DNA from: Clostridia bacterium
Lineage (GTDB): Bacteria; Bacillota; Clostridia; Oscillospirales; Acutalibacteraceae
Length of the DNA stretch: 64,000 bases
NCBI GenBank assembly: GCA_017436915.1
Contig: JAFSCE010000014.1
Span: 1,974-65,973 of the forward strand
Direction: 5' to 3'
The notes beneath the pieces are model-generated. The model saw nothing but the letters and a program-made list of their open reading frames with translations. It did not search any database and had not been told where the DNA came from. Positions 5,581-25,624 of this stretch are shown here, one piece after another (positions within the stretch are counted from its first letter, which is position 1; each line of letters begins with the position of its first letter). The translations under genes were made by a program, and so were the position numbers.

Positions 5581-6177
5581 TTAAGTGAAATGAAACACCG
5601 GTGAGAAGCCCATGAGCGCAAGCGCGAGCAAGCCGAGATACACAAGCGTTGCGGGAAGACCGCGGAACGACGAGGGAATATCGGGGTTATCCATACGTTC
5701 GGCTGCCTCTGCGGTCATCGAAGACAGAAAGAGAAAGCCAAGCGCGGCGCCGGCAGCGAGCCCCAAAGCGGGCAAAAAGGATACCGATACCTGTAGGTTT
5801 AATAACAACGCCACACCAACAACCAAGTTGTTGAAAGCGGCAAGCGACAGCAAGTGCCGTACACGGCGGTACATCGTTTCAAAACGGCTGAGGATCACGA
5901 TAGAAAGCAAATATAGTAGACAGACGATACCCACGATAATGACCGGGCGCAGCATCCGCACCCACCATGTGGCAGCAAGAAGCTGATCGATGGGGTAAAA
6001 GATGGCGGTCGTGATCACCGAAAAGCACAAAACCATTCCGCCAAAACGAAGTAGCTGACGGGGATTACGGTTGATTTTAAGCATCACCGAGGAATCAAAA
6101 CCGGCAGTGAGTACCAAGTTCTGCATGGTGGCGGCGATGAGAAAAACCAAGATGGTCGTAACAACGGTATTCATCAA
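5581..6177 (-). CDS. RnfA/NqrE-family membrane protein, divergent (both conserved Cys absent)
   Basis: Collinear with E. coli RsxA. QNLVLTAGFDSSV aligns with NNFVLVKFLGLCPF, AFNNLVVGVALLLN with TTNCAVLGVALLN, and PSSFRGLPATLVYLGLLALALMGFS with [25 protein letters not shown]. Confidence 0.8.
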   Translation of the reverse strand: MMNTVVTTILVFLIAATMQNLVLTAGFDSSVMLKINRNPRQLLRFGGMVLCFSVITTAIFYPIDQLLAATWWVRMLRPVIIVGIVCLLYLLSIVILSRFETMYRRVRHLLSLAAFNNLVVGVALLLNLQVSVSFLPALGLAAGAALGFLFLSSMTAEAAERMDNPDIPSSFRGLPATLVYLGLLALALMGFSPVFHFT

Positions 6178-6809
6178 ACGTCCACCTCCTGTGACTCGTT
6201 ACGGTGCAGCAATTTTTTGATCCACTGCAGGGTAGCAGCCATAAAACCGAGTAGGATAAAGCCGATAAAGGGATGTGCGGCTTCGGGGAAACGGGCTTCG
6301 TATCCGAGCGGGATGTTCCAAAGTGTTCCGTTGATCGCCATTTCCCGCAGTGCTGAAGCAACGCACAAGACCAAGCTGAAACCGAGCGCCGTACCAACGG
6401 AATCTGCCAACATTACCAAAAGAGTTGAACGGGCAACGGGTGGCGCGATGGCAGAACGGTAGGTATATAAAGTGTTTACTGCCATCAGTGGTAAAAACAG
6501 ATATAAGTGTGCATAGATCTCGGTAGAAATGAATCGAAGAGAAACCGAGGTGCCAAACAGCAAAAGAGAGGAAAGTAAGACGTACACGATCGGTTGCAGA
6601 CGAGTGGCAATATGTTTTGAAAGCAGGGCGAATAGCAAATCGGAGAGCACCAACGTCACAACGGTGCACACAGACAAGGCGACGCCGTAACGCAGGTTAA
6701 TACCCATTGCCAAAATCGGGCAGAGCCCCAGTGCTTGAACAAGCACGACATTTTGAGGCAAAAAGGCATGCCAAACCGTTGATGCGAAAGTATGTATGGC
6801 AGGTTTCAT
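6174..6809 (-). CDS. RnfE/NqrD-family membrane protein, divergent
   Basis: Carries QNVVLVQALGLCPILA and LREMAINGTLWN, matching RsxE. The start at 6809 overlaps the upstream stop (ATGA). The second conserved Cys motif reads AVNTLY. Confidence 0.8.
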   Translation of the reverse strand: MKPAIHTFASTVWHAFLPQNVVLVQALGLCPILAMGINLRYGVALSVCTVVTLVLSDLLFALLSKHIATRLQPIVYVLLSSLLLFGTSVSLRFISTEIYAHLYLFLPLMAVNTLYTYRSAIAPPVARSTLLVMLADSVGTALGFSLVLCVASALREMAINGTLWNIPLGYEARFPEAAHPFIGFILLGFMAATLQWIKKLLHRNESQEVDV

Positions 6810-7792
6810 CGAGGTGACACCTCCTCTTTCCGGCGATGCAGCCACGTTACCAAATGCCAGCAACCGCGATCCAGCAGCAGTGAGAACGAATTGACCAGCA
6901 TAACCGCAAAGAATTCGCAACATTCAAAACGGCCGAAGTGGCGGAGCAACATGGTCAAGACAGCAGCTATAACACCGTACAAGATGCGGGCAAGCCAAAA
7001 GCGTGGTGCGGTAACGGGGTCACTGAGCAAAAACACACCGGAGAACAACAGAAGACCGGTGCAAAGCTCCAGGGATACGCTGGTAGAGGCGGCAATCTCT
7101 GCGCGCGGGAACAGCGCCGCGCCGATCGCACAAACGATCAGATACGGGATTAAGATCAGGGGGGAGGATGAGCGGCGCACGAACAGATACAGCGCACAAG
7201 CGAGCAAAATCAGCACGCCGGTTGATCCGATCGGACCGGGAAAATCACCACTGAGCAAAGAAATCCAGCCATACGAGGTCGTGCCGCCGCTGTTAAGCTG
7301 TGCGGTAGGGGATGCCGCTGTGATCACCGCAGAGGTATCAAGCAGCGGCAGCGAATTCGTTAAGGTTGGGTCAGGATACACAAACAGACGCGTGGGGAAA
7401 CAAACAGCGCAAAACGCCATGCCGGCTGCGGCAGGGTTGAAAATATTTCGGCCCGTTCCGCCAAACGGCATTTTAGCAATACCGATGGCAAACACAGAGC
7501 CGATCGCGGGCACCCAGAACGGAGTCAATGGTGACATCATTGCGCCGATCAGTCCGCCCGTTACCAACGAGGTGGCATCTGACATCGATGGGCGGCCGTG
7601 ACGAAACAAGCCGCAGATAAATTCGGTGAGTACCGCGCTGATAACGCCGGATAACACCAGCAAGAGCGGGCGGATGCCGTAGTGCAAGCAGGAAAAGGCC
7701 GTGAGCGGAACCAAGCATAGCAGTACGCCGAACGATTGGTAGGCGGGACGTTGTGCTTCGCGCAGATGCGGAGCAGGAGAAGCTTTAAGCAT
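6806..7792 (-). CDS. RnfD/NqrB-family membrane protein, divergent
   Basis: Polytopic membrane protein starting MLKASPAPHLREAQ, a typical RnfD N-terminus. The ATG at 7792 overlaps the stop of the upstream gene (ATGCTTAA). The track start at 8008 lies inside the upstream gene. Confidence 0.8.
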   Translation of the reverse strand: MLKASPAPHLREAQRPAYQSFGVLLCLVPLTAFSCLHYGIRPLLLVLSGVISAVLTEFICGLFRHGRPSMSDATSLVTGGLIGAMMSPLTPFWVPAIGSVFAIGIAKMPFGGTGRNIFNPAAAGMAFCAVCFPTRLFVYPDPTLTNSLPLLDTSAVITAASPTAQLNSGGTTSYGWISLLSGDFPGPIGSTGVLILLACALYLFVRRSSSPLILIPYLIVCAIGAALFPRAEIAASTSVSLELCTGLLLFSGVFLLSDPVTAPRFWLARILYGVIAAVLTMLLRHFGRFECCEFFAVMLVNSFSLLLDRGCWHLVTWLHRRKEEVSPR

Positions 7793-9077
7793 CGGTATCC
7801 TCCTTCCATTCGACGGAAATGGCGTTGCCGGCGGTTTTTGCTTCTTCAATAACGGCGGCAAGGTCAATACCGCACGGGCAGATATACGAACACGCGTTAC
7901 AGCCGTCGCACAGATGAGGAGATAGCGAAGCGAGCCGTTCGTAGTGCATGTTTTGATAGCGGCGGTTGATCTCAAACGGTAACAGCCCCTTGTGGCAGGC
8001 CTGTACACATCGACCGCAGCCGATGCAGGTGCGGGTGGTAACGGGGCGGATTGCTTTGGCGGTAAAGGCCAAAATACAGGTCATACCCGGCAAGATCGGC
8101 ACGTCCGAGGTGAGGGCTGCCGTGCCGGTCATTTGTTCGCCTAACACGAGATAATCCGGCGGTTCGGTCAAGCCACAATGTTCCAACACCTGCTGCACCG
8201 TTGTGCCAAAAGGAACGGATACGTTTTGCGGATGAGGAACAGCGTCTCCGGCGACCGTGACGGTGCAACGGCTGTGCACTTCCCCTAAATATAACGCGCG
8301 ATACAGCGCCAAGCACGCTTGCACGCCGATGCGGTATACGCGTGAGCTGCGTTTCACCGTGCCTCGACCGTCGCGTTTACCGTAACGTACCGGATCGGCT
8401 TTCGGATAATAGGAATCGGTTTGATAAAGATACTCTTTGCCGATGCGCAGGGCGATCGAGCGCCGCCGATGTCCCGAAAGGCAAACGGCAATATGATAGC
8501 GCTCAGCACCGATACACAGCGCGGCAAGGCGAAGCCCCTCCAACACGTTTTCGGCATGGTCACGCAGGACCGCCCAAGCACTGGAAGAATAGGGCTCGAT
8601 CTCAATGCCGTCGGCGACTAAAAAGTCGCAGCCGGTTTCTTGCCATTCGCGCAGTTTTAAAATCAGCGGGACGCCGTCCAATTCGTCAATGACATCCAAT
8701 CGCTCCGCGGTTTCAAGAATCAACTCGGGGGTGATCGTTTCGGGAAGTAATACCGGCACCTCGGGTGCGGGAACGTCGGGAACACAATCAATGACGGCAC
8801 AGTTAAGAGTGCCGTACAAGGGGTGCTGGATTATCCGTTCGCCACTCACTGCGCCCATGACGCTTGAACAGACCGTGGCGAGCGGATCATTCTCGATGAC
8901 CGCCAAGGGAGTGCCTCTGTTGACGGTGTCGTATAAAGAAACGGCAGGAACGACCGCCGCTTCGGTGGCAAAGGAAAAGGGGAGAATGACTTGTGAAATT
9001 TGTGTCAACTCCGCTGTCGGCCGTGAGATGGCGGGTTCCTTTTGGAACAACAGCCGAATCCCATGTCGAGAAAGCAT
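7785..9077 (-). CDS. RnfC-like iron-sulfur protein lacking the flavin/NADH glycine loop
   Basis: The C-terminus carries two 4Fe-4S motifs, CIGCGRCVQAC and CDGCNACSYICP. The central segment DFLVADGIEIEPY aligns with the RnfC/PduS TLI(L/I)N.AECEP segment. The ATG at 9077 follows AAAGGGTGTGG. Confidence 0.75.
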   Translation of the reverse strand: MLSRHGIRLLFQKEPAISRPTAELTQISQVILPFSFATEAAVVPAVSLYDTVNRGTPLAVIENDPLATVCSSVMGAVSGERIIQHPLYGTLNCAVIDCVPDVPAPEVPVLLPETITPELILETAERLDVIDELDGVPLILKLREWQETGCDFLVADGIEIEPYSSSAWAVLRDHAENVLEGLRLAALCIGAERYHIAVCLSGHRRRSIALRIGKEYLYQTDSYYPKADPVRYGKRDGRGTVKRSSRVYRIGVQACLALYRALYLGEVHSRCTVTVAGDAVPHPQNVSVPFGTTVQQVLEHCGLTEPPDYLVLGEQMTGTAALTSDVPILPGMTCILAFTAKAIRPVTTRTCIGCGRCVQACHKGLLPFEINRRYQNMHYERLASLSPHLCDGCNACSYICPCGIDLAAVIEEAKTAGNAISVEWKEDTDA

Positions 9078-9126
9078 ATTGCCACACCCTTTCTGTAAAG
9101 TCAAAAGAATTCCAAAATTTAACCTC

Positions 9127-9155
9127 TTGCAAAGAGCTTGTACCCTTAATATGAT
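9127..9155 (+). promoter_or_regulatory. Candidate sigma-A promoter for the mecA-like gene
   Basis: TTGCAA, a 17-nt spacer, then TATGAT. The RBS AAAGGAGG lies before the ATG at 9192. Confidence 0.4.
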
Positions 9156-9191
9156 AATGATATACGGTCCTTTGCAAAGGAGGAACTAGCG

Positions 9192-9758
9192 ATGAAAATA
9201 GAACCGCTGAACAGCGGTGATTTACGAATATGGATGACCGATGACGAACTGTGCCGCTGGGGATTGCGGTTAGATGACATGAAGGCAGGCAAGCCCGAGA
9301 CGAGTCGCACCATACGGCGGTTGCTCGGCATTGCCAGACAGCGTCAAGCGTTTTCCGGCAACGGCAGTGTACTGGTAGAAGCCCTGCCGCTTGATGGCGG
9401 TTGTTTGTTTTTGTTCAGCTCGCCCGATCGTTTTGCCTCGATAGCGGCTTTGCCGCAGGTGTATACCCTGGACTCGGCGGAAGCAGTGTTGCAGTTCGGA
9501 GAACGGTTGTCCGCCAAAGGGCAGGAGTACCTACCGCCTGCTTCACTGTATCGTCAGGGGGAGGGGTACGTGCTGATTTTATACAGGGGGCTTGGCACGG
9601 CAGGCGGTTGCCGCCGCTTGTTGCAAGAATTCGGTCGCTGTACGGGCGAAGGGTACGTTGCCGCCGCCTACGTGGAAGAACACAGTCAGCCGATCACGGT
9701 TGGGAATGCACTGCAGCGCCTGTGCGCAGCGTATGGATCTCTGCCACCAACGCTTTAG
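9192..9758 (+). CDS. mecA: MecA-like adaptor protein (ClpC adaptor family)
   Basis: The N-terminus MKIEPLNSGDLRIWMTDDELCRWG parallels B. subtilis MecA MEIERINEHTVKFYMSYGDIEDRG. The C-terminal YRQGEGYVLILY and EEHSQPI segments parallel the MecA C-domain. Confidence 0.6.
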   Translation: MKIEPLNSGDLRIWMTDDELCRWGLRLDDMKAGKPETSRTIRRLLGIARQRQAFSGNGSVLVEALPLDGGCLFLFSSPDRFASIAALPQVYTLDSAEAVLQFGERLSAKGQEYLPPASLYRQGEGYVLILYRGLGTAGGCRRLLQEFGRCTGEGYVAAAYVEEHSQPITVGNALQRLCAAYGSLPPTL

Positions 9759-10368
9759 CATCGTCCGCGTTAAAGAGGGCGCTACCTACCACGGCAATAT
9801 CGGCGCCCGCTTCGGCGGCGACGGGTGCCGTAGCGGCGCCGATGCCGCCATCTACCTGCAGCTGCACGGATAAGCCGCGACGGTCGATCTCAGTGCGCAG
9901 TTCGCGTACTTTCGGCATCATATCCGCCATAAAGGACTGTCCGCCAAAACCCGGCTCGACGGTCATCACGAGAATCATATCGACTTTATCCAGATACGGG
10001 AACACCGCACTTGCAGGTGTTTTCGGTTTAATAGTGAGTGCCGCTTTTTTGCCGAGCGCACGGATCTTATCCAGCGTTTCGGCAATCGGCGCGGCGCTTT
10101 CTACGTGGAAATTGATGAGATCCGCGCCCGCTTTCGCAAACGCCTCGATCAGTCGGTCGGGGTATTCCATCATCAGATGCACGTCAAAAAACATGTCCGA
10201 GATCGGGCGCAGACGTGCAATGACCGGCGGGCCGAAGCTTAAGTTCGGCACGAACACACCGTCCATCACGTCTAAATGCACCATATCGGCACCGGTTTGT
10301 TTCACAAAATCGAGTTCCCGTTCCATATGCGCAAAGTCACAGGTGAGGATGGAAGGAGATACCAGCAT
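9694..10368 (-). CDS. rpe: Ribulose-phosphate 3-epimerase
   Basis: Carries MLVSPSILTCDF, HLDVMDGVFVPNLSFG, and GFGGQSF followed by QVDGG. The start is set at 10368 because the predicted promoter lies at 10412-10440. Confidence 0.9.
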   Translation of the reverse strand: MLVSPSILTCDFAHMERELDFVKQTGADMVHLDVMDGVFVPNLSFGPPVIARLRPISDMFFDVHLMMEYPDRLIEAFAKAGADLINFHVESAAPIAETLDKIRALGKKAALTIKPKTPASAVFPYLDKVDMILVMTVEPGFGGQSFMADMMPKVRELRTEIDRRGLSVQLQVDGGIGAATAPVAAEAGADIAVVGSALFNADDAKALVAEIHTLRTGAAVHSQP

Positions 10369-10411
10369 AATTTGCCTCTTTTCCGCCCGATGGGCATAGA
10401 AATACAAATAC

Positions 10412-10440
10412 ATTTTACCTCATTTTTCGAAAAAGGTCAA
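10412..10440 (-). promoter_or_regulatory. Sigma-A type promoter for rpe
   Basis: The minus strand reads TTGACC, a 17-nt spacer, then TAAAAT. Confidence 0.5.
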
Positions 10441-10492: not shown

Positions 10493-11140
10493 TTATTTTA
10501 CGACTTCCACTTTGAAACCGTTCCCGATGCCGGCGGCGTTTGCGTCGTCGGTGTCAACGTGCATTTCCAAACGGAACGCCTTGTTGACACGCACCTGCAC
10601 GTCGTAGAACGTGGTGCGGCGCTCGCCGTTCAGATTCACGGTAACGTAATCGCCGTCTTTGACACCGAATGCGGCGCCGTCTTCCTCACTCATGTGGATG
10701 TGACGGTTGGCAATGATGCAGCCCTCGGAAAGCGTGACAACGCCCTTGGGACCGATGATGGTGACGGGGGCGGAGCCGGCAATATCGCCCGATTCGCGCA
10801 CCGGCGGTTTGACTTTCAGTACAAACGAATCGGTGCGGGAGATCTCCACCTGCGAGGCCTTTCTCACGGGGCCAAGCACGCGCACGTTCTCAATGGGGCG
10901 CATGGCGGGACCGACGATGGTGAGCACTTCTTTGCAGGCGTACTGGCCGGGCTGAGAGAGATCCTTAAGCGGGGTCAGCTCATAGCCCTTGCCGAACAAG
11001 ATCTCCACGTGTTCTTTGGAGAGATGGATGTGACGGTTGGATACACCCACCGGCACGGTATTATCCGCTTTCGGTGCAGTGCCGACCTCCGCGATCACGC
11101 GGTTGACGATCTCGGTAACTAACGATGCATCGTATGCCAT
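10493..11140 (-). CDS. pduL: Phosphate propanoyltransferase PduL, with an N-terminal encapsulation-peptide-like helix
   Basis: The PduL repeat is duplicated: GVSNRHIHLS and IANRHIHMS. The N-terminus reads SLVTEIVNRVIAEV. Confidence 0.9.
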   Translation of the reverse strand: MAYDASLVTEIVNRVIAEVGTAPKADNTVPVGVSNRHIHLSKEHVEILFGKGYELTPLKDLSQPGQYACKEVLTIVGPAMRPIENVRVLGPVRKASQVEISRTDSFVLKVKPPVRESGDIAGSAPVTIIGPKGVVTLSEGCIIANRHIHMSEEDGAAFGVKDGDYVTVNLNGERRTTFYDVQVRVNKAFRLEMHVDTDDANAAGIGNGFKVEVVK

Positions 11141-11155
11141 AGTGAAATCTCCTTT

Positions 11156-12601
11156 TTAGATAATGCGGAAGCTATCCGCCATCACGCAGCGGCGCTGACG
11201 CGTGAAGCTGCGTGCCGAGGTGATACCCTCACCGGTGGGGCCGGCGATGGTGAAGGTGGTGTGACCTTCGCCGCCGAAGCCGATGCCCGCGTAAGACGGA
11301 GCATTCTTTACGAAAATGGTGGTTTCCACCGCTTTGGCAAAGCGGGACAGATGATCGATGTTCTTGGAGTGCATGTGAGCGGTGTGGCGGTTGCCGTGCT
11401 CCGCTTTGCAAGCCAGCTCGATCGCTTCGTCGATGTTGTCCACGCGCACGATGGGCAGAATGGGCATCATCAGCTCGTGCTGCACGAAGGGGTGGTCGAA
11501 ATCGGCCTCGCAGATGATGCACCGAATATCTTTGCTCACGTTGATACCGATCTTGGCAAGCAACACGTCTGCGTCACGACCGACACAGTCGCGATTGACA
11601 ATGGTCTTGACCTTGCCGTTTTTGTCGGTCTTGTTGACGAGTACGATGTCGGCAAGCTGTTTTGCCTGATTGGCGTTGATCTGGTAAGCACCGTTGCGCA
11701 GCATGACCGAGATGAGCTCGTCGGCAATGTTGCGGAACGCGAACACTTCTTTTTCTGCGATGCAGGGCAGGTTGTTGTCGAAGGTGCAGCCGTCGATAAT
11801 GTCTTTACCGGCTTTGGCGATGTCGGCGGTATCGTCCACGATGACCGGCGGGTTACCGGCACCGGCGCCGATCGCTTTTTTACCGGAAGAAAGCACGGCG
11901 CGCACAACGCCGGGGCCACCGGTGCAAACGAGCAGGCGGATAGACGGATGCGACTGCATGATCGCCGCGGATTCCATCGTGGGTTTCTTCATGGAGCAAA
12001 CCAACACGTCGGGGCCGCCTGCTGCCTTGCAGGCGCGGTTGACGAGGTCGACCGCGTAGTTGGAGGTCGCGATAGCGTTGGGGTGGGGGTTGAACACCAC
12101 ACCGTTACCTGCCGCGATCATACCGATGCTGTTGCAGATGACCGTTTCACTGGGGTTGGTGCTGGGAGTGATGGCACCCACCACACCGAACGGAGCCATT
12201 TCAACCAGCGTCAGACCGCTGTCACCCGTCTTGGCGGCAGACACGATATCCTCGGTACCGGGGGTCTTGTCTGCTACCAACAAGTGCTTGGCGCGCTTGT
12301 GATCCACGCGACCCATACCGGTCTCGGCGACACCCAGTTCTGCCATGATCGGCGCTTCCTCGCGGGTGCGTTTGCGGATCTCGGTGATGATGCGCTCGCG
12401 CTCTTCCACGCTCATGGAACGAATGGCGCGATAGCCGGCTTCCGCCGCCTTGATCGCTTCATTCATGTCCTCGTAAATACCGATCAGCTTACGGCCGCCG
12501 TATTGGGTGGAATCCCACGATGCGGCGGGGGTCGTTTGAATGCGGTTCAGTACTTGGCTGACAACCTGTCGGATCTCAGATTCGGAAATTGTTGTTGCCA
12601 T
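11156..12601 (-). CDS. pduP: CoA-acylating aldehyde dehydrogenase (PduP/EutE family), with an N-terminal encapsulation peptide
   Basis: 481 aa in the ALDH fold, with TGGPGVV and a CIAEKE catalytic Cys region. The N-terminus reads SESEIRQVVSQVLNRI. Confidence 0.9.
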   Translation of the reverse strand: MATTISESEIRQVVSQVLNRIQTTPAASWDSTQYGGRKLIGIYEDMNEAIKAAEAGYRAIRSMSVEERERIITEIRKRTREEAPIMAELGVAETGMGRVDHKRAKHLLVADKTPGTEDIVSAAKTGDSGLTLVEMAPFGVVGAITPSTNPSETVICNSIGMIAAGNGVVFNPHPNAIATSNYAVDLVNRACKAAGGPDVLVCSMKKPTMESAAIMQSHPSIRLLVCTGGPGVVRAVLSSGKKAIGAGAGNPPVIVDDTADIAKAGKDIIDGCTFDNNLPCIAEKEVFAFRNIADELISVMLRNGAYQINANQAKQLADIVLVNKTDKNGKVKTIVNRDCVGRDADVLLAKIGINVSKDIRCIICEADFDHPFVQHELMMPILPIVRVDNIDEAIELACKAEHGNRHTAHMHSKNIDHLSRFAKAVETTIFVKNAPSYAGIGFGGEGHTTFTIAGPTGEGITSARSFTRQRRCVMADSFRII

Positions 12602-12643
12602 CTTAAAATCACTCCTTACAGAACTTCAGGGTATCTTTTTCAA

Positions 12644-13408
12644 TCAGTAAACCAGTTCAACGTCTTTGTTTCTTAAATATTCCACCCAACGATCGTCGGG
12701 CTTTTCGTCGGTGACCACGGTGTCGATATCCGCAACGTCGCATACCTTGACGAATGAGATCTTATCGAATTTTGTGCCGTCCACCGCGAGTACTTTGCGG
12801 TTGGCGGCGGAGAAGATTGCCTGCTTGATCTGGCAATCTTTTTCGTTTGAGTCGGTAACGCCCATATTCATATCGAAGCCCTTTGAGGAGCATACGGCTA
12901 AATCCACATGGAAACCGCGGATCATTTTCTCTGCCGTGGTGCCGACCATCGCGAGCGCGCCTTCCTTCAGCGCGCCGCCGGTGGATAGGACGTTCCAGCC
13001 CTCCTTGTCGGCAAGCTCCAAGAGAATCTCAACGGAGTTTGTGATGAGCGTAATGTTTTTGCGGGATTTAATGTATTTGGTCACGAAAATGGCGGTGGAG
13101 CTGGCGTCCAACATGATGTAATCGCCGTCGTGGATCATCTCGCCGATCTTTTGAGCGATACGCTGTTTTCGATCGACGTTCGCACGCTTGCGAACGCTGA
13201 ACGGCAGGTCGGTATTCATCGTTTGGGTGGCTACCGCGCCGCCGTACGTCTTTTTCGCTAAGCCGTCTTTATCCAGCTTTTCCAAATCGCGGCGAATGGT
13301 TTCTTCCGTTACACCGAAGTCACGGCTCAAGTCCGCAACAATGACTTTTCCATCTTGCGCTAATTTCGAAAGAATGACATTCCGCCGTTCAATTGCGAGC
13401 ATCGCCAT
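12644..13408 (-). CDS. DeoR/GlpR-family transcriptional regulator, embedded in line in the BMC locus
   Basis: N-terminal HTH (VADLSRDFGVTEETIRRDLEKL) plus a C-terminal DeoR sugar-phosphate-binding domain. Confidence 0.9.
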   Translation of the reverse strand: MAMLAIERRNVILSKLAQDGKVIVADLSRDFGVTEETIRRDLEKLDKDGLAKKTYGGAVATQTMNTDLPFSVRKRANVDRKQRIAQKIGEMIHDGDYIMLDASSTAIFVTKYIKSRKNITLITNSVEILLELADKEGWNVLSTGGALKEGALAMVGTTAEKMIRGFHVDLAVCSSKGFDMNMGVTDSNEKDCQIKQAIFSAANRKVLAVDGTKFDKISFVKVCDVADIDTVVTDEKPDDRWVEYLRNKDVELVY

Positions 13409-13461
13409 GACCTCCTTTCCCTTAGGGTTTGATTACTCACCCTAAAATCTACCGCGTTGTT

Positions 13462-14010
13462 TTACAGGATACTACGCCACATTTTCTCGTCGGGGTGGGG
13501 AATGATCGCACTGTCAAGATACATACCGGCGTCGCCGGCGCCCTTTTGGGCGTTGTTGATAGCGGCTTGTACTGCGGCGATCTCGCCGGTCAGGAGTAAA
13601 TACGATTTGCCGCACATACCACGAGCGAGGCGAAGTTCCACCAAATCGACTTGAGCGGTTTTGGCGGCGACGTCCGCAGCGACAATAGCCGCGGCAGCTG
13701 TAAAGGTCTCCAGAACACCGAGCGCGTTCGGCTTACCGATATCAGTTGAGCCGTACAACGCGCTGAAGATGGATTCGTGGGGGTTGCCAAGCACAAAACT
13801 GTCAATCAGGGAATCGGGATAGTGTGTTGATGATGCATCAACCGCTGCCTTGACAGCGCTCAGATCACCGCTGATGATGACCATGTATTTACCGGGGCAA
13901 ACCGCGCCGGCTTCCAATATATCGACCTCTGATGTTTTGACCATCCGATCCGCCGCCATCATACCGGAGGATACGGTTTTATATTCGACCATGCCGATTG
14001 CTTTTTTCAT
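13462..14010 (-). CDS. pduT: Tandem BMC-domain shell protein (BMC-T, PduT-like)
   Basis: 182 aa with two BMC repeats (GMVEYKTVSSG and GVLETFTAAAA). Cys38 in AVCPGKY sits at the position of the PduT pore Fe-S ligand. Confidence 0.85.
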   Translation of the reverse strand: MKKAIGMVEYKTVSSGMMAADRMVKTSEVDILEAGAVCPGKYMVIISGDLSAVKAAVDASSTHYPDSLIDSFVLGNPHESIFSALYGSTDIGKPNALGVLETFTAAAAIVAADVAAKTAQVDLVELRLARGMCGKSYLLLTGEIAAVQAAINNAQKGAGDAGMYLDSAIIPHPDEKMWRSIL

Positions 14011-15341
14011 TATGCATCCTCCTTCATCAGAGTAATGACCGAGTCGCTGACGGATTCAACCGTCGCGTTGACCGGTGCGTGGATGTTGACGCTGAGTGCG
14101 TTTTCGGCGGCTTCGGCGATCACCTGACCGGCGGTTACCTTATCGCCTGCGGCGACCACCGCTTTGGCGGGAGCGCCGATATGCTGTGATAACAGCACGC
14201 GGAGCTGTTTGCCCGACGGCTCGGCATCGGATAACGGTGCCGGCTTGTCGTAAGCGGTGAGCCCCAGCCGCGCCATTAAACGGTTCATCGGTACTCGGCG
14301 GTAGTCACGAGCCGGGTTAACCGGTTGTGCTTCCGGAGCGGGCGGCTTAATACCGTTTTGCCGAAGTCCCGTTTTGCAGGCGGCGAGCAGCGTGCGGGGG
14401 GCAAGACCCTGACCGCAGGAATACAATTCGCACAGACCGCAGCTGACGCAATAAAACGAGTTAAGATAAGGGGTCGCGTCGTTGGTAATGCCGTTTGACG
14501 CGTATAGCATAAATTTGTGGGGTTCGATCGGATGTCCGAGCATGTGACGGGGACACAGATCGGTGCAGTAGTTGCACTGACAACACGCCGCCATGGCGCG
14601 CTTCATATCCACAAAGGGTTTGGCTTGTTTTTTCTCGATCAGCAGATGATCGTCCGGCAAAACCAGTACGGCGTTCGTCGTGCGGGTGACCGGTTCGTGT
14701 ACACTGCCGATGCGACCCATCATCGGGCCGCCCATCAGATACGAGGGATGGGGAGTGGTGGTGCCGCCCGCAAGTTCGATCAGCTCACTGATCGCGGTGC
14801 CGACCGGCACCTTGAAGGTGGCGGGGTTGGCAACCTCGCCCGCGACGGTCACGTACTTGTGCGTGACCGGCTTTCCGCCGAGCAGGTTTGCCACGTTAAG
14901 GATGGTCTCCACGTTGAACACCGTAACGCCTACCGCGATGGGCAACCCGCCTGCGGGTACGACGCGTCCGGTGGCTTCGTAGATCAGCACCACTTCGTCA
15001 CCGGCAGGATATACCGCCGGCAGACGGCAAATTGACATATTTGAGTAGGCGGCCATATGTTGTTCGACGGCTTCAATCGTTTGCTTGTAATGCTTCTTGA
15101 TGCCGAGGATCACCGATTTGGCGCCTATTGTTTTCGCAATTAAATCAAAAGCCCTCAGGATTTCTTCTGCGTGCTGCTCCAAGAGCTGTTGATGCAGTTT
15201 TAAAAGCGGCTCGCATTCTGCACAGTTGAGGATAAGGGTGTCGGCGCGCTCGTCCAATTTCGCGTACGAGGGGAAACCGGCACCGCCGGCGCCGACCACG
15301 CCACCCTCACGGAGAAGGGCCTTGAGTTCAGTTATGTTCAT
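14010..15341 (-). CDS. pduS: PduS-like RnfC-family flavo-iron-sulfur oxidoreductase
   Basis: Carries GAGGAGFPSYAKL, TLILNCAECEP and two Cys clusters (CCQCNYCTDLCP and CVSCGLCELYSC). At 443 aa it is close to the expected PduS length. Confidence 0.85.
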   Translation of the reverse strand: MNITELKALLREGGVVGAGGAGFPSYAKLDERADTLILNCAECEPLLKLHQQLLEQHAEEILRAFDLIAKTIGAKSVILGIKKHYKQTIEAVEQHMAAYSNMSICRLPAVYPAGDEVVLIYEATGRVVPAGGLPIAVGVTVFNVETILNVANLLGGKPVTHKYVTVAGEVANPATFKVPVGTAISELIELAGGTTTPHPSYLMGGPMMGRIGSVHEPVTRTTNAVLVLPDDHLLIEKKQAKPFVDMKRAMAACCQCNYCTDLCPRHMLGHPIEPHKFMLYASNGITNDATPYLNSFYCVSCGLCELYSCGQGLAPRTLLAACKTGLRQNGIKPPAPEAQPVNPARDYRRVPMNRLMARLGLTAYDKPAPLSDAEPSGKQLRVLLSQHIGAPAKAVVAAGDKVTAGQVIAEAAENALSVNIHAPVNATVESVSDSVITLMKEDA

Positions 15342-15609
15342 GATTATTCAGTCCTATACCGTTATCCACGATGCCGACGATGGCGGCATCAACAGGTGCG
15401 TTTTCCATATTGCAACCGATGCGGGCAGCGCTGCCGGTGGCTACCAAAACAAGCTCACCTATGCCGGCGCCGACGTTGTCGATCGCAACGATGTTGGAGG
15501 AGCTGTCGCCCATATCGGCGAGCGGCTCAATCACCATAAATTTACTGCCGATTAAGTTGTCGTTTTTGCGTGTGGAAACGATGCTTCCCACAACTTTTCC
15601 GACGATCAT
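15328..15609 (-). CDS. pduN: BMC vertex pentamer protein (BMC-P; EutN/CcmL/PduN family)
   Basis: Starts MIVGKVVGSIVSTRKNDNLIGSKFMVIEPL. The ATG at 15609 follows AAAGGTGAGG. Confidence 0.9.
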   Translation of the reverse strand: MIVGKVVGSIVSTRKNDNLIGSKFMVIEPLADMGDSSSNIVAIDNVGAGIGELVLVATGSAARIGCNMENAPVDAAIVGIVDNGIGLNNHEHN

Positions 15610-15695
15610 GTTCCTCACCTTTTCATTCAATAGTTTGGGGGATGGGGAGAATGCGGAGGGAGCGGAAGCCCCCTCCGCATGAACCATACAAATAC

Positions 15696-15974
15696 TTATT
15701 TGAGTACGGGCAGGATCTTCTCCACATCGCCATGGGGTCTCGGGATGACATGCGTAGCAATGACTTCGCCCAGACGCGCAGCAGAAGTCGAACCGGCTTC
15801 CACAGCGGACTTAACAGCGCCGACATCGCCGCGAACCATGACGGACACGAGTCCGGAACCGATCTTCTCGGTACCGATCAGGACGACGTTCGCAGCTTTG
15901 ACCATTGCGTCAGCAGCTTCGACAGCGGCGACCAGACCTCTGGTTTCGACCATACCTAATGCTTCCAGTGCCAT
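15696..15974 (-). CDS. BMC-H hexamer shell protein (PduA/PduJ-like), paralogue 1
   Basis: Starts [30 protein letters not shown], the canonical Pfam00936-type sequence. Confidence 0.95.
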
Positions 15975-16010
15975 TGATGTTTCCTCCTTGTGTTATTTTG
16001 TTTGGTAGAC

Positions 16011-16289
16011 TTATTTCAGCGCCGGCAAGATTTTCTCGACGTCGCTGTGGGGTCTCGGGATTACATGGGTCGCAACCAACTCGCCCAGCGTAGATGCGGA
16101 CGTAGAACCGGCTTCGACAGCAGCTTTGACGGCGCCGACATCGCCGCGAACCATGACGGACACGAGTCCGGAACCGATCTTCTCGGTACCGATCAGGGTC
16201 ACGTTCGCAGCTTTGACCATTGCGTCAGCAGCTTCGACGGCGGCTACCAGACCTCTGGTTTCGACCATACCCAATGCTTCCAGTGCCAT
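16011..16289 (-). CDS. BMC-H hexamer shell protein, paralogue 2 (an alternative upstream start at 16373 would add a 28-aa Ala/Pro/Glu-rich extension)
   Basis: About 91% identical to paralogue 1 at the protein level. A strong RBS (AAAGGAGGTAAAGAGT) precedes the internal ATG at 16289. The longer ORF overlaps the upstream gene by 14 nt. Confidence 0.85.
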
Positions 16290-16359
16290 ACTCTTTACCT
16301 CCTTTACCGGTTCTACTTCGGGCGCCGCGTTCGGCGCCTCAGTGGGGACCTTTTTTTGT

Positions 16360-16665
16360 TCAGCCATTTTCATTCCCTGCCTTTTTCTGAATTCGTGCGG
16401 CGCTCAAATTGATCATCCGCATGGTTTCCTCGTGCGGGCTGGCAATGACAGCGTGAGCAACGGGTTTTGAGATTGCGTTCGCGATCGTGTTTTCCACGGC
16501 GGCGGTGACAGCCGATACGTCGCCTTGCACGACGATCGTGACCAGGCGCCCGCCGAGCTTACGCTCCCATGTGACAAATTCCACATTGGCGGATTTGCAC
16601 ATAATGTCCAAGCAATCAACTCCGGCGGTTACGCCGGACACTTCAACCAGTCCTAAAGACTTCAT
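16360..16665 (-). CDS. Divergent BMC-H domain shell protein
   Basis: Starts [30 protein letters not shown] and has a BMC fold pattern with a short basic C-terminal tail. Confidence 0.85.
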
Positions 16666-16679
16666 CTTGGAATCTCTCC

Positions 16680-16955
16680 TTAGAATTTCGGAAGGATCTT
16701 CTCCACATCAGCGTGAGGACGCGGAATGACGTGGACAGCAACCAACTCGCCCAAACGGGAAGCGGAGTTGGAGCCGGCCTCAACGGCGGCCTTGACAGCG
16801 CCGACGTCGCCGCGGACCATGACGGATACGAGTCCGGAACCGATCTTTTCGGTACCGATGAGGGTGACCTCTGCTGCTTTGGACATTGCATCGGCAGCTT
16901 CGATGGCGGCGGTGAGGCCGCGGGTTTCTACCATACCAAGTGCTTCGTTAGACAT
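16680..16955 (-). CDS. BMC-H hexamer shell protein, paralogue 3
   Basis: Starts [54 protein letters not shown]. Confidence 0.95.
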
Positions 16956-16976
16956 AGGTATATTCCTCCTTTTGAT

Positions 16977-17291
16977 TTAGTTCTTATCGAAAGCATTGAT
17001 TTTGAGCATCGGCTCGGTATCCGGCTCGGTGCTGCTCATGATATGTGTCGTGACAACACCGGATACGCCCTTGGCTGCTTCGGCGGCGGCTGCGACAGCG
17101 GCGGTGACATTGTCGACCGTGCCGCGGAATTTCACCGCAACGATGAGCGGGACCGTTAAGCTTTCGGGGTTGCCGGGTTTGTTTTTGTCGAAGTTTTCGA
17201 CCGTCACATCGGCAGCTTTGCAGCCGGCATCGCACGCGACGAAGGCGGCGACCAAGCCGTATACTTCAATAATACCGGTGGCGTTTCCCAT
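16977..17291 (-). CDS. Divergent BMC-domain shell protein with an internal insertion
   Basis: Carries GIIEVYGLVAAFVACDAGCKAADV and VKFRGTVDNVTAAV. An insertion of about 12 residues (DKNKPGNPESLT) sits within the BMC fold. Confidence 0.8.
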   Translation of the reverse strand: MGNATGIIEVYGLVAAFVACDAGCKAADVTVENFDKNKPGNPESLTVPLIVAVKFRGTVDNVTAAVAAAAEAAKGVSGVVTTHIMSSTEPDTEPMLKINAFDKN

Positions 17292-17305
17292 GGTTTATTC
17301 GCTCC

Positions 17306-18514
17306 CTACTTGTTGACGACAGCGATCTTCAAACCTTCCATTTTCAGGTTCGTGACCAGTGCTTCGTTGATCTGTTCCAACGGGAACTTATGGGTGATGA
17401 GTTTTTCCATCGGCAAGCCGATGCCCTTCGCACGCTTGAGGAAATCAAAGGTGGTTGCGTAGTCACGCAGGGTATATACCCAGGAACCGACCGTAGTGAT
17501 CTCTTTCGAGCAGATGTCGAAGTGGGGGTTGATGGTGGCGTCGCCGCCGTTGATGAAGAAGCCAAGCTCGCACAAGCCGCCGCCGTTGCGGATGAACTTG
17601 TAGATGTTGGCGTGGGCAACGGGGGAGCCGGTGCACTGGAATGCGAAATCGGCAAGATAACCGCCAAACGCATCTTTTACGCCGCCTGCCAACGCTTCCA
17701 CACCCTGGAAGTCTTTGAAATTGACGGTGGCGTTCGCACCCATCTGACGAGCAAACTCCAAGCGCTTGTTCTCGCCGTCTACCGCCACGATGTTTTCAAT
17801 ACCCATCGTACGCAGAACCGCGATGCAGATCAGACCGATCGGACCGCAACCTTGCACGACAACGCGGCTGTTAAAGCGCAGGATGCCGGTGGTCTTGGCG
17901 CGCTCGACGGCGTGCACCAACACGGCGCAGGGCTCGATCAAAATACGGGAATCAAGGTCTAAATCGCTGACGTTGAACACAGACGAACCGCCGCGAACGA
18001 CGATGTAATCGGCGAACCAACCGTTGAAATGGACCTCGTCGTCAGGGAGCAGACCGTATACGTCCGCCGCGCCGACGTTTTGTTTGTTCATATCGAACAT
18101 CGTGATGTTGGGATCGTCGCGCAGGGTGACACAGGTGACGACCTTATCACCGATGTGCAGGGGCTTACCTGCACTGTCAACCTTAACGTTTTTACCCATC
18201 TTGACGATCTCGCCGGTGCCCTCGTGACCGAGTGCCACGGGGATCAGGCCAAAGGGATCGCGCTTGAACTCGTGAGCATCCGTTCCGCAGACGCCGCAGC
18301 CCTCGACCTTGACGAGCATATCGTCATCGCCGAGCTCGGGGATGGCATACTCTTTGAGCTCGAATTTTTCAAGCTCGGTGAGCATGGCCACACGTGCGGT
18401 TTTCGGGACGCTCTGTCCGGCAGCAGGAGCAGCAGCGGGAGCCGGAGCGGCGCCCTTCATATTGTCCAATACCTGGCGGACGATTTCTTCAATGTTGGAA
18501 GAATTAACATCCAT
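17306..18514 (-). CDS. Zn-dependent alcohol dehydrogenase (MDR family), with an N-terminal encapsulation peptide and an Ala/Pro linker
   Basis: Carries GCGVCGTD, GHEGTGEIV and a GCGPIGL Rossmann motif. The N-terminus reads SNIEEIVRQVLDNMKGAAPAPAAAPAAG. Confidence 0.85.
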   Translation of the reverse strand: MDVNSSNIEEIVRQVLDNMKGAAPAPAAAPAAGQSVPKTARVAMLTELEKFELKEYAIPELGDDDMLVKVEGCGVCGTDAHEFKRDPFGLIPVALGHEGTGEIVKMGKNVKVDSAGKPLHIGDKVVTCVTLRDDPNITMFDMNKQNVGAADVYGLLPDDEVHFNGWFADYIVVRGGSSVFNVSDLDLDSRILIEPCAVLVHAVERAKTTGILRFNSRVVVQGCGPIGLICIAVLRTMGIENIVAVDGENKRLEFARQMGANATVNFKDFQGVEALAGGVKDAFGGYLADFAFQCTGSPVAHANIYKFIRNGGGLCELGFFINGGDATINPHFDICSKEITTVGSWVYTLRDYATTFDFLKRAKGIGLPMEKLITHKFPLEQINEALVTNLKMEGLKIAVVNK

Positions 18515-18996
18515 TACTGTGTGCCTCCACTTCTCTCAAAAAGTTCTTTACCGTAAGCAGCCAGTGCGGTATCCTGCTCTTCCGAGCCGCCGCTGACGCC
18601 CAGTCCGCCAATGATCTCACCGCTTGCATTTCTAAGCGGTTCCCCACCGCCGAAAATGACGATGTGTCCTTCATTGGTAAACTGAATGCCGTACAACGGA
18701 CCGCCGGGCTGTGCTAATGGTTTTAATTGTGCGGTGGACATTTTCAGCGAAACGACGGTAAACGCCTTTTGCAAAGCAACGTCGTAACTGGCGATGTACG
18801 AATCGTCTGCACATTCTACCAGTACCGGTCGTGCCGCCTTGTTGGAAATTGCCACCACGGCTTTGACACCCATTTGAGCCGCTTTCTCCCGCACTTTGGC
18901 GGCAAGGGGGAGCGCGGCGTCGAGCGTCATATCGGTAAGGCCGCCTAATTGACGGACTACCTTATCCACAACAGAGCGCAAGACTTGTTCGTCCAT
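18514..18996 (-). CDS. GlcG/HbpS-like (DUF336, PduO C-terminal domain-like) protein, with an N-terminal encapsulation peptide
   Basis: Carries GGGEPL and GGLGVSGG motifs. The N-terminus reads DEQVLRSVVDKVVRQL. Confidence 0.8.
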   Translation of the reverse strand: MDEQVLRSVVDKVVRQLGGLTDMTLDAALPLAAKVREKAAQMGVKAVVAISNKAARPVLVECADDSYIASYDVALQKAFTVVSLKMSTAQLKPLAQPGGPLYGIQFTNEGHIVIFGGGEPLRNASGEIIGGLGVSGGSEEQDTALAAYGKELFERSGGTQ

Positions 18997-19006
18997 AAGT
19001 GACTCC

Positions 19007-19816
19007 TTATTTCGCCATCTGCTCTAATACGCGCTTGGTGATCTCGGCAACCAGATCCGTTTCGCCCGCACCACTGTGGCAGGAGCCATCGCAGTTACCG
19101 CAACCGTGGCAGCTGGGCAAGCCGGCTTTTTGGTTGGGGCACAAGTCGGCGGGGTGCTTACCCTTCAGGCCGAACTGGCGGCGGATCTCATACAAGCGCT
19201 GCACCTGTTTCTCGCTGAGCTCTTTCGGGCCGCCAAGCTGCTTGGAAATGTACAACAGATGCGCGTAGAACTCAACCGACTCCATCTTATGGTACGCATT
19301 CAGCAGATTGTCCGAGAACGCGAGCGCACCGTGGTTTTCGAGCAGCACCGCGTCGAAGGACTGCAGGTACTTAGATACCGCATCCGGGATTTCCTCGGTG
19401 GAGGGGGTGCCGTACTCAGCGATCGGCACGCATCCGAGCGCGATAACCGCTTCCGGCATGATCGGCTGTGTCAGCGGGATACCCGCGATGGCAAAACCGG
19501 TTGCGTACATCGGGTGTGCGTGAACGACAGCGCCGACGTCCGGACGCTCTTTGTATACACGCATGTGCATTTTGATCTCCGACGAGGGCTTGAAGCCGGC
19601 GTTTGCCTGAAGCACTTTGCCGTCCTTGTCAACTTTGCAGATGTACTCGGGGGTCATGAAGCCCTTGCTGACACCCGTGGGGGTGCAGAGGAACTCGTTG
19701 TCGTTCAGCTTAACGGAAATGTTACCGTCGTTCGCCGCGACCATGCCACGATCGTAAATGCGTTTACCGATCGCACAGATCTGCTTTTTGATTTCATACT
19801 CGTTTACCATTGCCAT
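19007..19816 (-). CDS. Class II aldolase (L-fuculose/rhamnulose-phosphate aldolase family), with a Cys/His-rich C-terminal extension and a terminal encapsulation peptide
   Basis: Carries GNISVKL and VVHAHPMYATGFA (metal-binding His residues). The C-terminus reads CPNQKAGLPSCHGCGNCDGSCHSG followed by DLVAEITKRVLEQMAK. Confidence 0.9.
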   Translation of the reverse strand: MAMVNEYEIKKQICAIGKRIYDRGMVAANDGNISVKLNDNEFLCTPTGVSKGFMTPEYICKVDKDGKVLQANAGFKPSSEIKMHMRVYKERPDVGAVVHAHPMYATGFAIAGIPLTQPIMPEAVIALGCVPIAEYGTPSTEEIPDAVSKYLQSFDAVLLENHGALAFSDNLLNAYHKMESVEFYAHLLYISKQLGGPKELSEKQVQRLYEIRRQFGLKGKHPADLCPNQKAGLPSCHGCGNCDGSCHSGAGETDLVAEITKRVLEQMAK

Positions 19817-19870
19817 AGTAATTCTCCTTTTTTATGTGGATTTTTCTTTGTTTGACACTTTCTTGACTAC

Positions 19871-19899
19871 ATGATAGCACCCAAACCACAAAAAGTCAA
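19871..19899 (-). promoter_or_regulatory. Internal sigma-A type promoter ahead of the aldolase gene
   Basis: The minus strand reads TTGACT, a 17-nt spacer (TTTTGTGGTTTGGGTGC), then TATCAT. The leader is about 55 nt and ends in AAAGGAG before the ATG at 19816. Confidence 0.55.
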
Positions 19900-20372
19900 C
19901 ACATAAATTTGGTTTTTTCTGTGTTTTCTTTTTGTTTTTGTTGGTTTTCGGGAATTTCGAGGTGCTTCAGCAGTGCGGGGATGCCTTCGCCGGTCAAGGA
20001 GTTTACGTGAAACACCGTTTCGCAACCGGATAGCCGCAGCCAGTTTTCTGCGCGGCGTGGGTCTGCTTTGTCGATCTTCGTGACGATTCCGATCACTTCG
20101 CGGTTTACCAAGCAGGTGATGCACGGCGGGAAGAGGGAATAGTCATCGTCGGCGGCAATCAGCAGACCGACCACGTCTGCCTCGTATGCATAGAGGCAAA
20201 GGGCGGCGCCGAGATCATGGTTTTCGGCATATTCGCCGGGGGTGTCGATGAGAAAGTCGTCGTAGGCGATTGCCTGTGTTTTTAAGTAGGTGACGGTCTC
20301 GCCGCGCAGGGCTTGTGTCAGTGAGGTTTTGCCGCAACCACTGCGCCCCATCAGGATCAGTTTCTTTCTCAT
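19896..20372 (-). CDS. pduV: EutP/PduV-family small GTPase
   Basis: Starts MRKKLILMGRSGCGKTSLTQAL (P-loop) and carries DTPGEY. The ATG at 20372 overlaps the upstream stop (ATGA). Confidence 0.85.
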   Translation of the reverse strand: MRKKLILMGRSGCGKTSLTQALRGETVTYLKTQAIAYDDFLIDTPGEYAENHDLGAALCLYAYEADVVGLLIAADDDYSLFPPCITCLVNREVIGIVTKIDKADPRRAENWLRLSGCETVFHVNSLTGEGIPALLKHLEIPENQQKQKENTEKTKFMC

Positions 20373-20743: not shown

Positions 20744-20747
20744 TGTA

Positions 20748-24067: not shown

Positions 24068-24099
24068 ATTGATACCCTCCCACATTTCATTCTGTACCC

Positions 24100-24733: not shown

Positions 24734-24754
24734 TTTAAATAGGAGATGAGCGTT

Positions 24755-25594: not shown

Positions 25595-25624
25595 ATGCGC
25601 TCATAGAGTGTATGGGTGAGGAAA

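Follow-up and report, generated by a model that had tools for sequence, protein, structure and literature searches.

What does an Rnf-type gene cluster encode when two of the canonical subunits are missing and most of the canonical cofactor ligands in the remaining ones are replaced? This question is raised by four adjacent genes, related to rnfC, rnfD, rnfE and rnfA, in a Clostridia bacterium of the family Acutalibacteraceae (contig JAFSCE010000014.1). The 64,000-nucleotide stretch of this contig that we analysed is hereafter referred to as the window, and the four genes and their products as C', D', E' and A'. Rnf is a central energy-conserving complex in many anaerobes, and surveys score it as present, absent or 'incomplete'. 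In the canonical chain, electrons pass from ferredoxin to RnfB, then to the RnfA/E metal centre, the flavin mononucleotide (FMN) of RnfG, the FMN of RnfD and riboflavin, and from riboflavin to the two [4Fe-4S] clusters of RnfC (C2 to C1), the FMN of RnfC and NAD+ (PMC9588780, PMC11889175). Here, we find that the C-D-E-A genes are a large conserved family and are not confined to a single genome. They cannot encode a conventional ferredoxin:NAD+ Rnf; the residues of the cluster indicate that it is repurposed, not redox-dead. What it now does can be answered tentatively: we favour a cofactor-reduced Rnf derivative that would act as a single-branch electron wire.

All four reading frames are intact, their starts are coupled, and a Shine-Dalgarno sequence lies ahead of each of them (coordinates in Table 1). 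C' and D' overlap by ATGCTTAA (7792-7785), and D' and E' by ATGA (6809-6806), which is where a preliminary description of the window had placed both overlaps. The same description reported an ATGA overlap of E' and A' at 6174-6177. The bases there (6177-6174) read TTGA, and the junction is TGATG, in which the ATG of A' shares one base with the stop codon of E'. The open reading frame finder puts the start of A' at the TTG at 6177; we take the ATG at 6174 to be the true start, because the orthologues of 197 residues begin MNT.... The overlaps between the C/D, D/E and E/A genes leave no room for rnfG, and since the lengths of the four proteins (430, 328, 211 and 197 residues) equal those of the canonical subunits, no G or B domain is fused into them, a possibility that the preliminary description had considered. 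Its statement that rnfG and rnfB are missing extends beyond the operon. No FMN_bind- or RnfB-type gene is present in the operon or among the scanned open reading frames of the window, and none of the FMN_bind, ApbE or RnfB type was found among the Pfam-annotated genes within 8-10 kb in related loci. A search of 92 loci with one RnfG-like protein as the query gave no relative. The next gene after A', 135 bp downstream, encodes a Cof-type HAD hydrolase according to Pfam and stands behind TTGACA-17-TATAAC, so that the hydrolase gene with its own promoter, described earlier at this place, is found again.

The cluster belongs to the Rnf/Nqr superfamily, as seen from significant matches to PF03116 and PF02508 and from the folds of the membrane subunits, which are kept. 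D' matches PF03116 with 224 bits (2.7e-66) and no other Pfam domain, while E' and A' match PF02508 with 93 bits (2e-26) and 54 bits (2e-14), respectively. The Pfam matches of C' are RnfC_N, SLBB and Fer4 dicluster; its score for Complex1_51K, the FMN domain, is 30.8 bits, below the cut-off of 31.2, and covers only profile positions 13-76 of 150. Against the curated NCBIfam models, C' reaches 157 bits for rnfC (cut-off 246), D' 153 bits for rnfD (cut-off 207), E' 69 bits for rnfE (cut-off 213) and A' 53 bits for rnfA (cut-off 229). The nqr models score far under their cut-offs for the proteins of the cluster, and PrdC gives 20.9 bits against a cut-off of 490. In a sequence search of the PDB, each of the four proteins pairs with its Rnf counterpart from Acetobacterium woodii (A. 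woodii), Clostridium tetanomorphum (C. tetanomorphum) and Azotobacter vinelandii, and there is a weaker pairing with NqrB, NqrD and NqrE. The best matches of C' are the RnfC chains 9eri_C, 8ahx_C and 7zc6_C (E-values of 2e-29 to 3e-23). The AlphaFold2 model of D' has a predicted local distance difference test score (pLDDT) of 84.9 and a predicted template-modelling (TM) score of 0.84. Compared using Foldseek, it aligns to the RnfD chains 8ahx_D, 9eri_D and 7zc6_D with TM-scores of 0.77-0.84 and superposes on NqrB too; the next matches, urea and ammonium transporters, are far weaker. The model of E' (pLDDT 74) aligns to RnfE and NqrD with TM-scores of 0.75-0.84. In these models, the folds of D' and E' are intact.

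The family is large. In metagenomes, A' has over 150 close relatives of equal length, which are named 'hypothetical protein' or generic RnfA, while an exact-sequence look-up with A' of the window gave no identical record. One genome per species (185,579 species) was scanned with two family-specific peptide patterns, which gave 115 loci, and the best 80 of these were examined. All 80 are from uncultured Clostridia of the animal or human gut, and about half are labelled Acutalibacteraceae. The gene order rpe(+), MecA-like(-), C', D', E', A'(+) is found in every one of the 80 loci with enough flank, the lowest sequence identities among them being 37% (C'), 42% (D'), 43% (E') and 45% (A'). Pairwise comparisons of the window with four relatives give ratios of nonsynonymous to synonymous substitution rates (dN/dS) of 0.04-0.11 for all four genes.

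More distant members were found with a profile of A', which was run against 1.84 billion representative proteins (50% identity) and yielded 1,683 hits at E <= 1e-3, of which 497 had E <= 1e-10. Seven distant proteins were traced to contigs. In one of these loci (L086), rpe / MecA / C-D-E-A is followed by a DUF1015 gene. The same arrangement is followed by a DUF4015 gene in L087 and L088, in L089 and L090, and in L091. Two loci lack C: L085 has MecA / D-E-A, and L092 reads rpe-D-E-A-DUF4015, without MecA as well. In L084, whose contig is too short upstream, a cut gene precedes A and DUF4015. Similar sets appear in the literature. For the Acutalibacteraceae isolate BL-6, four rnf genes and no more have been reported, together with Ech (PMC7764203), and Faecalibacterium duncaniae (F. 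duncaniae) A2-165 is drawn with 'two putative rnf operons (rnfDEA ..., rnfCDGEAB ...)' (PMC10781979). These sets, from Oscillospirales as well, lack G and B and occur instead of a canonical rnfCDGEAB in BL-6 and beside it in Faecalibacterium. Going by these mentions, the F. duncaniae rnfDEA and the four genes of BL-6 probably belong to the C-D-E-A family; if they do, cultured organisms carry the system too, with a canonical Rnf alongside it or without one. The supplementary tables of the two papers hold no expression or locus data for the paralogous genes. Our literature search found no paper that analyses the C-D-E-A arrangement; the genes have already been seen by others, solely as an 'incomplete' or 'second' rnf operon.

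The metal site between the A and E subunits is lost. In the alignment to solved Rnf and Nqr chains, the positions of Cys25 and Cys113 of RnfA are taken by Ser and Asn in A', and E' keeps the first canonical cysteine, C30 (in GLCP), and has T113 in place of the second. One of the four cysteines of the site remains in the window, as the preliminary description had read from the motifs, and this pattern is consistent over 79-80 orthologues. The A' subfamily has no conserved cysteine at all; its close relatives never carry the two canonical ones and share a signature of their own, QN..LT.G, FNN and DNPD.P..FRGLP. The same loss reaches far beyond the close relatives. Among the best 150 profile matches, 136 are full-length, and of the two RnfA cysteines 76 have neither, 54 the second only, four the first only and two both; the pair is incomplete or missing in 134 of these 136 representatives at 50% identity. 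Of six distant E' proteins, five lack both canonical cysteines and the sixth (L092) keeps the first. Most distant E' retain the R67-E115 ion pair though they have no metal site; in A. woodii RnfE, this pair gates the entry of Na+ (PMC11889175). E' of the window's subfamily has lost E115 of the pair, kept C30 and gained C48 and C149. These three cysteines are invariant in 80 of 80 sequences, and C48 and C149 are absent from canonical RnfE.

The C-like subunit keeps its iron-sulfur motifs and has lost its flavin loop, in agreement with what had been described before. Both CxxCxxCxxxC motifs are intact in the alignment. All eight cysteines are present in 69 of 69 sequences, and also in four distant members and in A. 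woodii RnfC. In the alignment to the chains of known structure, C' reads DELDGVPLILKL where RnfC has GLGGATFPTHVKL, with ELDGVPLILKL standing opposite the flavin loop. The acidic replacement is two residues shorter, and the glycine-rich loop that serves FMN and NADH is gone. The replacement has its own conservation: D131, E132, G135, L138 and L142 are invariant in 69 orthologues, D134 and K141 are nearly so, and D-E-x-D-G is also present in C' of four distant members. A PduS-like paralogue in the window (gene 14010-15341) carries GAGGAGFPSYAKL at this position, as had been stated earlier.

The D-like subunit retains the positions that matter for flavins. The preliminary description had considered the flavinylation site of D' lost, with VITAASP in its place. 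The motif is there as described; the position itself is not lost, being an invariant Ser, a conservative change, and the riboflavin ligands are kept. In the best alignment, which is to A. woodii RnfD, VTTATPLA pairs with ITAASPTA and places the Ser of VITAASP, S161, exactly on the FMN-bearing Thr, which is T156 in that protein (PMC11889175). Position 161 is Ser in 75 and Thr in one of 76 sequences, and is Ser or Thr in six distant members. The riboflavin ligands D249 and N123 of A. woodii correspond to D258 and N119 of D'; in the distant members, D258 is Asp in four of six and N119 is Asn in three of six. Two other residues, N90 and E185 in the C. tetanomorphum numbering, are replaced by M85 and S190 in D'; both belong to the Na+ route that has been proposed for C. 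tetanomorphum RnfD (PMC9588780). In the C. tetanomorphum structure, RnfC encloses the N-terminal arm of RnfD (PMC9588780), and the corresponding arm of D' carries the motif xP(H)[ILV]R in 70 of 75 orthologues. A variant form of the motif is found in the four distant members that have C, and the motif is absent in the two that lack C. This co-variation of the arm with C', seen in a small sample, supports a C'-D' docking of the canonical kind. D' also has two cysteines, C131 and C221, in 75 of 76 sequences. Like C48 and C149 of E', they are invariant in the Acutalibacteraceae subfamily only and are absent from canonical Rnf and from the distant members.

The preliminary description concluded that the conventional ferredoxin:NAD+ path looks broken and that the cluster is 'repurposed or pseudo-redox'. 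We agree on the path, since RnfG, RnfB, three of the four A/E cysteines and the FMN loop of RnfC are all gone. The word 'repurposed' is borne out by purifying selection and by invariant motifs that are the cluster's own; 'pseudo-redox' is not, given S161, the riboflavin ligands and the eight iron-sulfur cysteines. About half of the electron-carrying sites of Rnf are lost from the cluster, which lacks the input branch, consisting of RnfB, the RnfA/E metal centre and the FMN of RnfG, and the NAD+ site with the FMN of RnfC. The other of the two electron branches of Rnf looks intact, because the flavin residues of D' and the iron-sulfur cysteines of C' are kept. It would comprise the two [4Fe-4S] clusters of C', the riboflavin pocket of D' and the outer-face flavin position of D', a Ser. 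Our tentative reading is that C'D'E'A' is a conserved, paralogous, cofactor-reduced derivative of Rnf and a single-branch electron wire. As in Rnf, C' would be docked on D' by the latter's N-terminal arm, and the complex would pass single electrons straight across the membrane between the cytoplasmic iron-sulfur clusters and the outer-face flavin. On the cytoplasmic side, it would meet a one-electron carrier, such as ferredoxin or flavodoxin, and on the outer side an extracytoplasmic flavin or acceptor that is encoded elsewhere. E' and A' would form a redox-inert scaffold, possibly still with a path for cations. The data establish the homology, the losses, the kept ligands, the purifying selection and the conservation of the operon with its surroundings; we infer cofactor binding, the direction of the electrons, the partners and any ion coupling. 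A wider version of this reading, in which the family is a widespread 'half-Rnf' of gut Oscillospirales, including relatives of Faecalibacterium, and a one-way conduit through which, for example, ferredoxin would reduce extracellular flavins or acceptors, we consider unlikely.

Several observations weigh against an electron wire. Without the FMN of C', electrons have no defined place to enter on the cytoplasmic side. The residue to which ApbE couples FMN is a Thr or Ser in the motif D-x-x-(S/T)-G-A-(S/T) (PMC12052999), and the residues before S161 lack the (S/T)-G-A of this motif, position -1 being A, T, L, V or others. Covalent flavinylation of S161 is uncertain, because positions -1 and -2 of the motif are not conserved. 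No apbE and no gene for an extracytoplasmic flavoprotein is near any locus. D-E-A occurs without a C gene within 2.8 kb of DNA in L085 and 11.6 kb in L092, and these two loci, together with the reported Faecalibacterium rnfDEA, mean that the membrane core can lack an adjacent iron-sulfur gene; a C-less D-E-A fits a non-redox role at least as well. The wire also gives no explanation for the conserved acidic D-E-x-D-G loop of C' or for the invariance of C48 and C149 in E' and of C131 and C221 in D', which could form a new metal or disulfide site, and it leaves the conserved MecA-like and DUF4015 neighbours unaccounted for.

In the chief rival reading, the module has no redox function: D'E'A' would be a channel or transporter, with C' as an iron-sulfur cap that regulates it or senses redox state, and a link to the envelope, sporulation or proteolysis would be possible. 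Besides the D-E-A sets without C (L085, L092 and the one reported in Faecalibacterium, PMC10781979), this reading can draw on the architecture of the membrane subunits, since those of Rnf and Nqr have inverted-repeat transporter folds and, after RnfD and NqrB, D' most resembles urea and ammonium transporters in structure. It also gains from the distant E' proteins, in which the Na+-gating R67-E115 pair (PMC11889175) is kept without a metal site, from the polar centre of the E'/A' hourglass (Ser and Asn of A', Cys and Thr of E'), from the fixed neighbourhood of the MecA adaptor and from the DUF4015 gene that follows in the distant members. In the window's own subfamily, however, the ion pair has lost E115. 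There is no substrate to propose, and a neighbourhood alone is no proof of a functional link. Moreover, the Ser/Thr position, D258 and N119 of D' and the eight iron-sulfur cysteines of C' are kept in a very old and diverse clade, which is hard to explain without electrons. We regard a non-redox module as possible, though on the doubtful side.

The electron wire has also to be set against two readings that need no new function. One is that the cluster is still a conventional Rnf, working as an ion-pumping ferredoxin:NAD+ oxidoreductase with RnfG, RnfB and ApbE borrowed from other places in the genome. A second Rnf-type cluster does occur in some genomes (in the locus L058, C-D-G and a membrane protein lie 7 kb off), and Faecalibacterium has rnfCDGEAB as well (PMC10781979). 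In the window, though, the A/E centre that links B to G is absent, with one of four cysteines left, and borrowed G and B subunits would have no connection. Another sequence stands in place of the NAD+/FMN loop of C, none of the four proteins comes near its curated cut-off, and BL-6 has been reported with only four rnf genes (PMC7764203). Borrowing is therefore highly improbable. The other is that we see a decaying rnf remnant, with pseudogenes in the making. Seen in one genome only, an operon short of two genes and of many canonical ligands would resemble erosion. Decay is excluded by the dN/dS values of 0.04-0.11 in all four genes; the frames are intact, with coupled starts and Shine-Dalgarno sites, and the family has acquired new invariant motifs. 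At least 80 species-level genomes, and more distant ones besides, share the operon with its flanks, and this conservation refutes decay, which we give next to no credence.

The C-D-E-A cluster can be compared with several known systems. Rnf of A. woodii and C. tetanomorphum (PDB 9eri, 7zc6) has the same order, C-D-(G)-E-A-(B), and four homologous subunits. The folds of RnfD and RnfE, the two [4Fe-4S] motifs of RnfC, the riboflavin ligands of RnfD and its N-terminal arm are all kept. Unlike Rnf, the cluster has no RnfG, RnfB or four-cysteine A/E site, the RnfC loop has become D-E-x-D-G, a Ser within a non-canonical motif takes the place of the FMN-bearing Thr of RnfD, N90 and E185 are replaced, and all the proteins are below curated cut-offs. 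In Na+-NQR, the membrane core NqrB/D/E corresponds to D'/E'/A', and NqrA sets a precedent as an RnfC homologue that has no cofactors and is yet a subunit on NqrB. NqrA has lost FMN and both iron-sulfur clusters, while C' keeps both cluster motifs. NQR retains the four-cysteine D/E centre, NqrC (the G homologue) and NqrF, which takes in NADH; none of these is found in the C-D-E-A cluster, and the gene list and Pfam show no NqrF or NqrC homologue in the operon. In two-subunit 'NQR/RNF-like' systems, an NqrB/RnfD domain is fused to an NAD-binding PF00175 domain and is encoded next to a flavinylated, RnfG/NqrC-like FMN_bind protein or ApbE; most of these systems are from Actinobacteria and the Candidate Phyla Radiation, and the D-like flavinylation site is not conserved (PMC8238504, PMC10979944). 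Such partial Rnf/Nqr systems, described by Meheust et al. in 2021 and in a follow-up of 2024, resemble ours in having one transmembrane electron path with a proposed one-way transfer. In contrast to them, the C-D-E-A cluster has neither a fusion nor a G-like partner, includes E, A and an iron-sulfur C subunit, and is hosted by Clostridia. Finally, PduS and PrdC share the RnfC-type architecture with two [4Fe-4S] clusters, and the PduS-like paralogue of the window lies 5 kb off. These proteins keep the GxGGAGFP loop, are soluble or microcompartment proteins and have no RnfD/E/A, whereas C' has no such loop and is coupled to membrane subunits.

For annotation, the recurrent 'incomplete' pattern, C-D-E-A or D-E-A, is a distinct and strongly selected family, and metabolic reconstructions go wrong either way, by counting these genes as Rnf or by dismissing them. 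The family also bears on the mechanism of Rnf. The roles of the RnfD path and of the RnfA/E module are disputed between the structural studies of C. tetanomorphum and A. woodii (PMC9588780, PMC11889175), and the latest A. woodii study holds the RnfA/E metal centre responsible for Na+ pumping (PMC11889175). If the 'half-Rnf' is real, it would be a natural experiment that separates the electron path of RnfD from the Na+-pumping module of RnfA/E, and biochemistry of C-D-E-A could show their separate contributions. The family could likewise show how Rnf/Nqr modules evolve, with the cofactor-less NqrA for comparison. Should electrons go outward, flavin-mediated extracellular electron transfer in abundant gut Clostridia might use this complex for its membrane step.

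The neighbourhood of the cluster is conserved on its C' side. The genes for the MecA-like adaptor and for ribulose-phosphate 3-epimerase (rpe) are convergent, and their 3' ends overlap by 65 nt (9694-9758); a similar overlap is seen in related loci. For the MecA-like protein, a comparison with solved structures gave no significant match, and the assignment is that of Pfam. Between C' and the MecA-like gene, there is a conserved TTGCAA-17-TATGAT with an AT-rich upstream element, which is directed at the MecA-like gene, and a weaker TTTGCA-16-TATCAT directed at C'. In the 64 orthologous intergenic regions, no comparably conserved promoter is evident for the C-D-E-A operon. A regulatory signal shared upstream of C' was considered and rejected, the conserved block being fully explained as the sigma-70-type promoter of the MecA-like gene. 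The sequence CATATTA, considered as a sigmaG-type -10 element, lies inside that promoter and is hence not independent. The upstream regions of the distant members have no common motif. On the other side, A' is followed in the window's subgroup by the genes for the Cof-type HAD hydrolase and a C26 gamma-glutamyl-hydrolase-like protein. The gene after A' in L084, L087, L089, L091 and L092, which encodes DUF4015 (PF13200), is putatively glycoside-hydrolase-like; the DUF4015 domain occurs fused to cortex-related YkyA domains (PMC12700454).

Table 1 Positions in the window of the C-D-E-A genes, their diagnostic codons and the adjacent features.
Feature	Position	Strand	Length (aa)	Description
C-like gene (C')	7785-9077	minus	430	RnfC_N barrel, degenerate NuoF-like FMN domain, SLBB, C-terminal 2x[4Fe-4S] ferredoxin domain
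D-like gene (D')	6806-7792	minus	328	RnfD/NqrB fold
E-like gene (E')	6174-6809	minus	211	RnfE/NqrD fold
A-like gene (A')	5581-6174	minus	197	Length from ATG at 6174; alternative TTG at 6177
D-E-L-D-G-V-P-L-I-L-K-L motif of C', codons D131-L142	8652-8687	minus		Replaces the GxGGAxFP FMN/NADH loop
Two CxxCxxCxxxC [4Fe-4S] motifs of C'	7878-8027	minus		C351-C361 at 7995-8027; C390-C400 at 7878-7910
S161 codon of D'	7310-7312	minus		Opposite the FMN-bearing Thr of RnfD (T156 in A. woodii)
C48 codon of E'	6666-6668	minus
C149 codon of E'	6363-6365	minus
Ser codon of A'	6088-6090	minus		Replaced Cys codon, from alignment to RnfA
Asn codon of A'	5827-5829	minus		Replaced Cys codon, from alignment to RnfA
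Divergent intergenic region, C'/MecA-like	9078-9191			Promoter scan and 64 orthologous intergenic regions
MecA-like adaptor gene	9192-9758	plus	188	PF05389 at 2e-13; divergent from C'; conserved neighbour
rpe (ribulose-phosphate 3-epimerase)	9694-10413	minus		TIGR01163 260 bits, above cut-off; conserved flank

A second, different Rnf-like cluster was observed in an Acutalibacteraceae metagenome-assembled genome, 7 kb from C-D-E-A (L058, 15358-19398, minus strand). It encodes an RnfC with an intact FMN domain, an RnfD with the canonical STATP, a 308-residue FMN_bind protein that ends in SGAT, and a 299-residue membrane protein that has no Pfam match and a weak RnfE-like stretch. RnfA and RnfB are absent from it, and pnp follows. 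This cluster is another truncated Rnf design in the same lineage.

The remainder of the window has several other features. The minus strand at 10493-24085 holds a bacterial microcompartment locus of the glycyl-radical-enzyme (GRE) kind, resembling the fucose/rhamnose type of GRE microcompartments (GRM). Its genes encode PduL, an aldehyde dehydrogenase, a DeoR regulator, BMC-T, the PduS-like protein (with GAGGAGFP intact), EutN, several BMC-H proteins, a zinc-dependent alcohol dehydrogenase, a fuculose-phosphate-aldolase-like protein, PduV/EutP, a GRE activase and a GRE of 848 residues. A functional link of C-D-E-A to this locus was considered and rejected, as related genomes have other neighbours there. 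The segment 28000-44000 is low in GC, at 0.37-0.48 compared with 0.54-0.56 elsewhere, and may be an acquired carbohydrate island. It carries genes for DUF3878, two DeoR regulators, a class II fructose-bisphosphate aldolase, alcohol dehydrogenases, two PF12831 FAD oxidoreductases, an AraC regulator, a xylose-isomerase-like TIM barrel, GH3 and an EamA transporter. Homologues of the germination protease gene gpr and of spoIIP are found at 24746-26698, and their presence identifies the organism as an endospore former.

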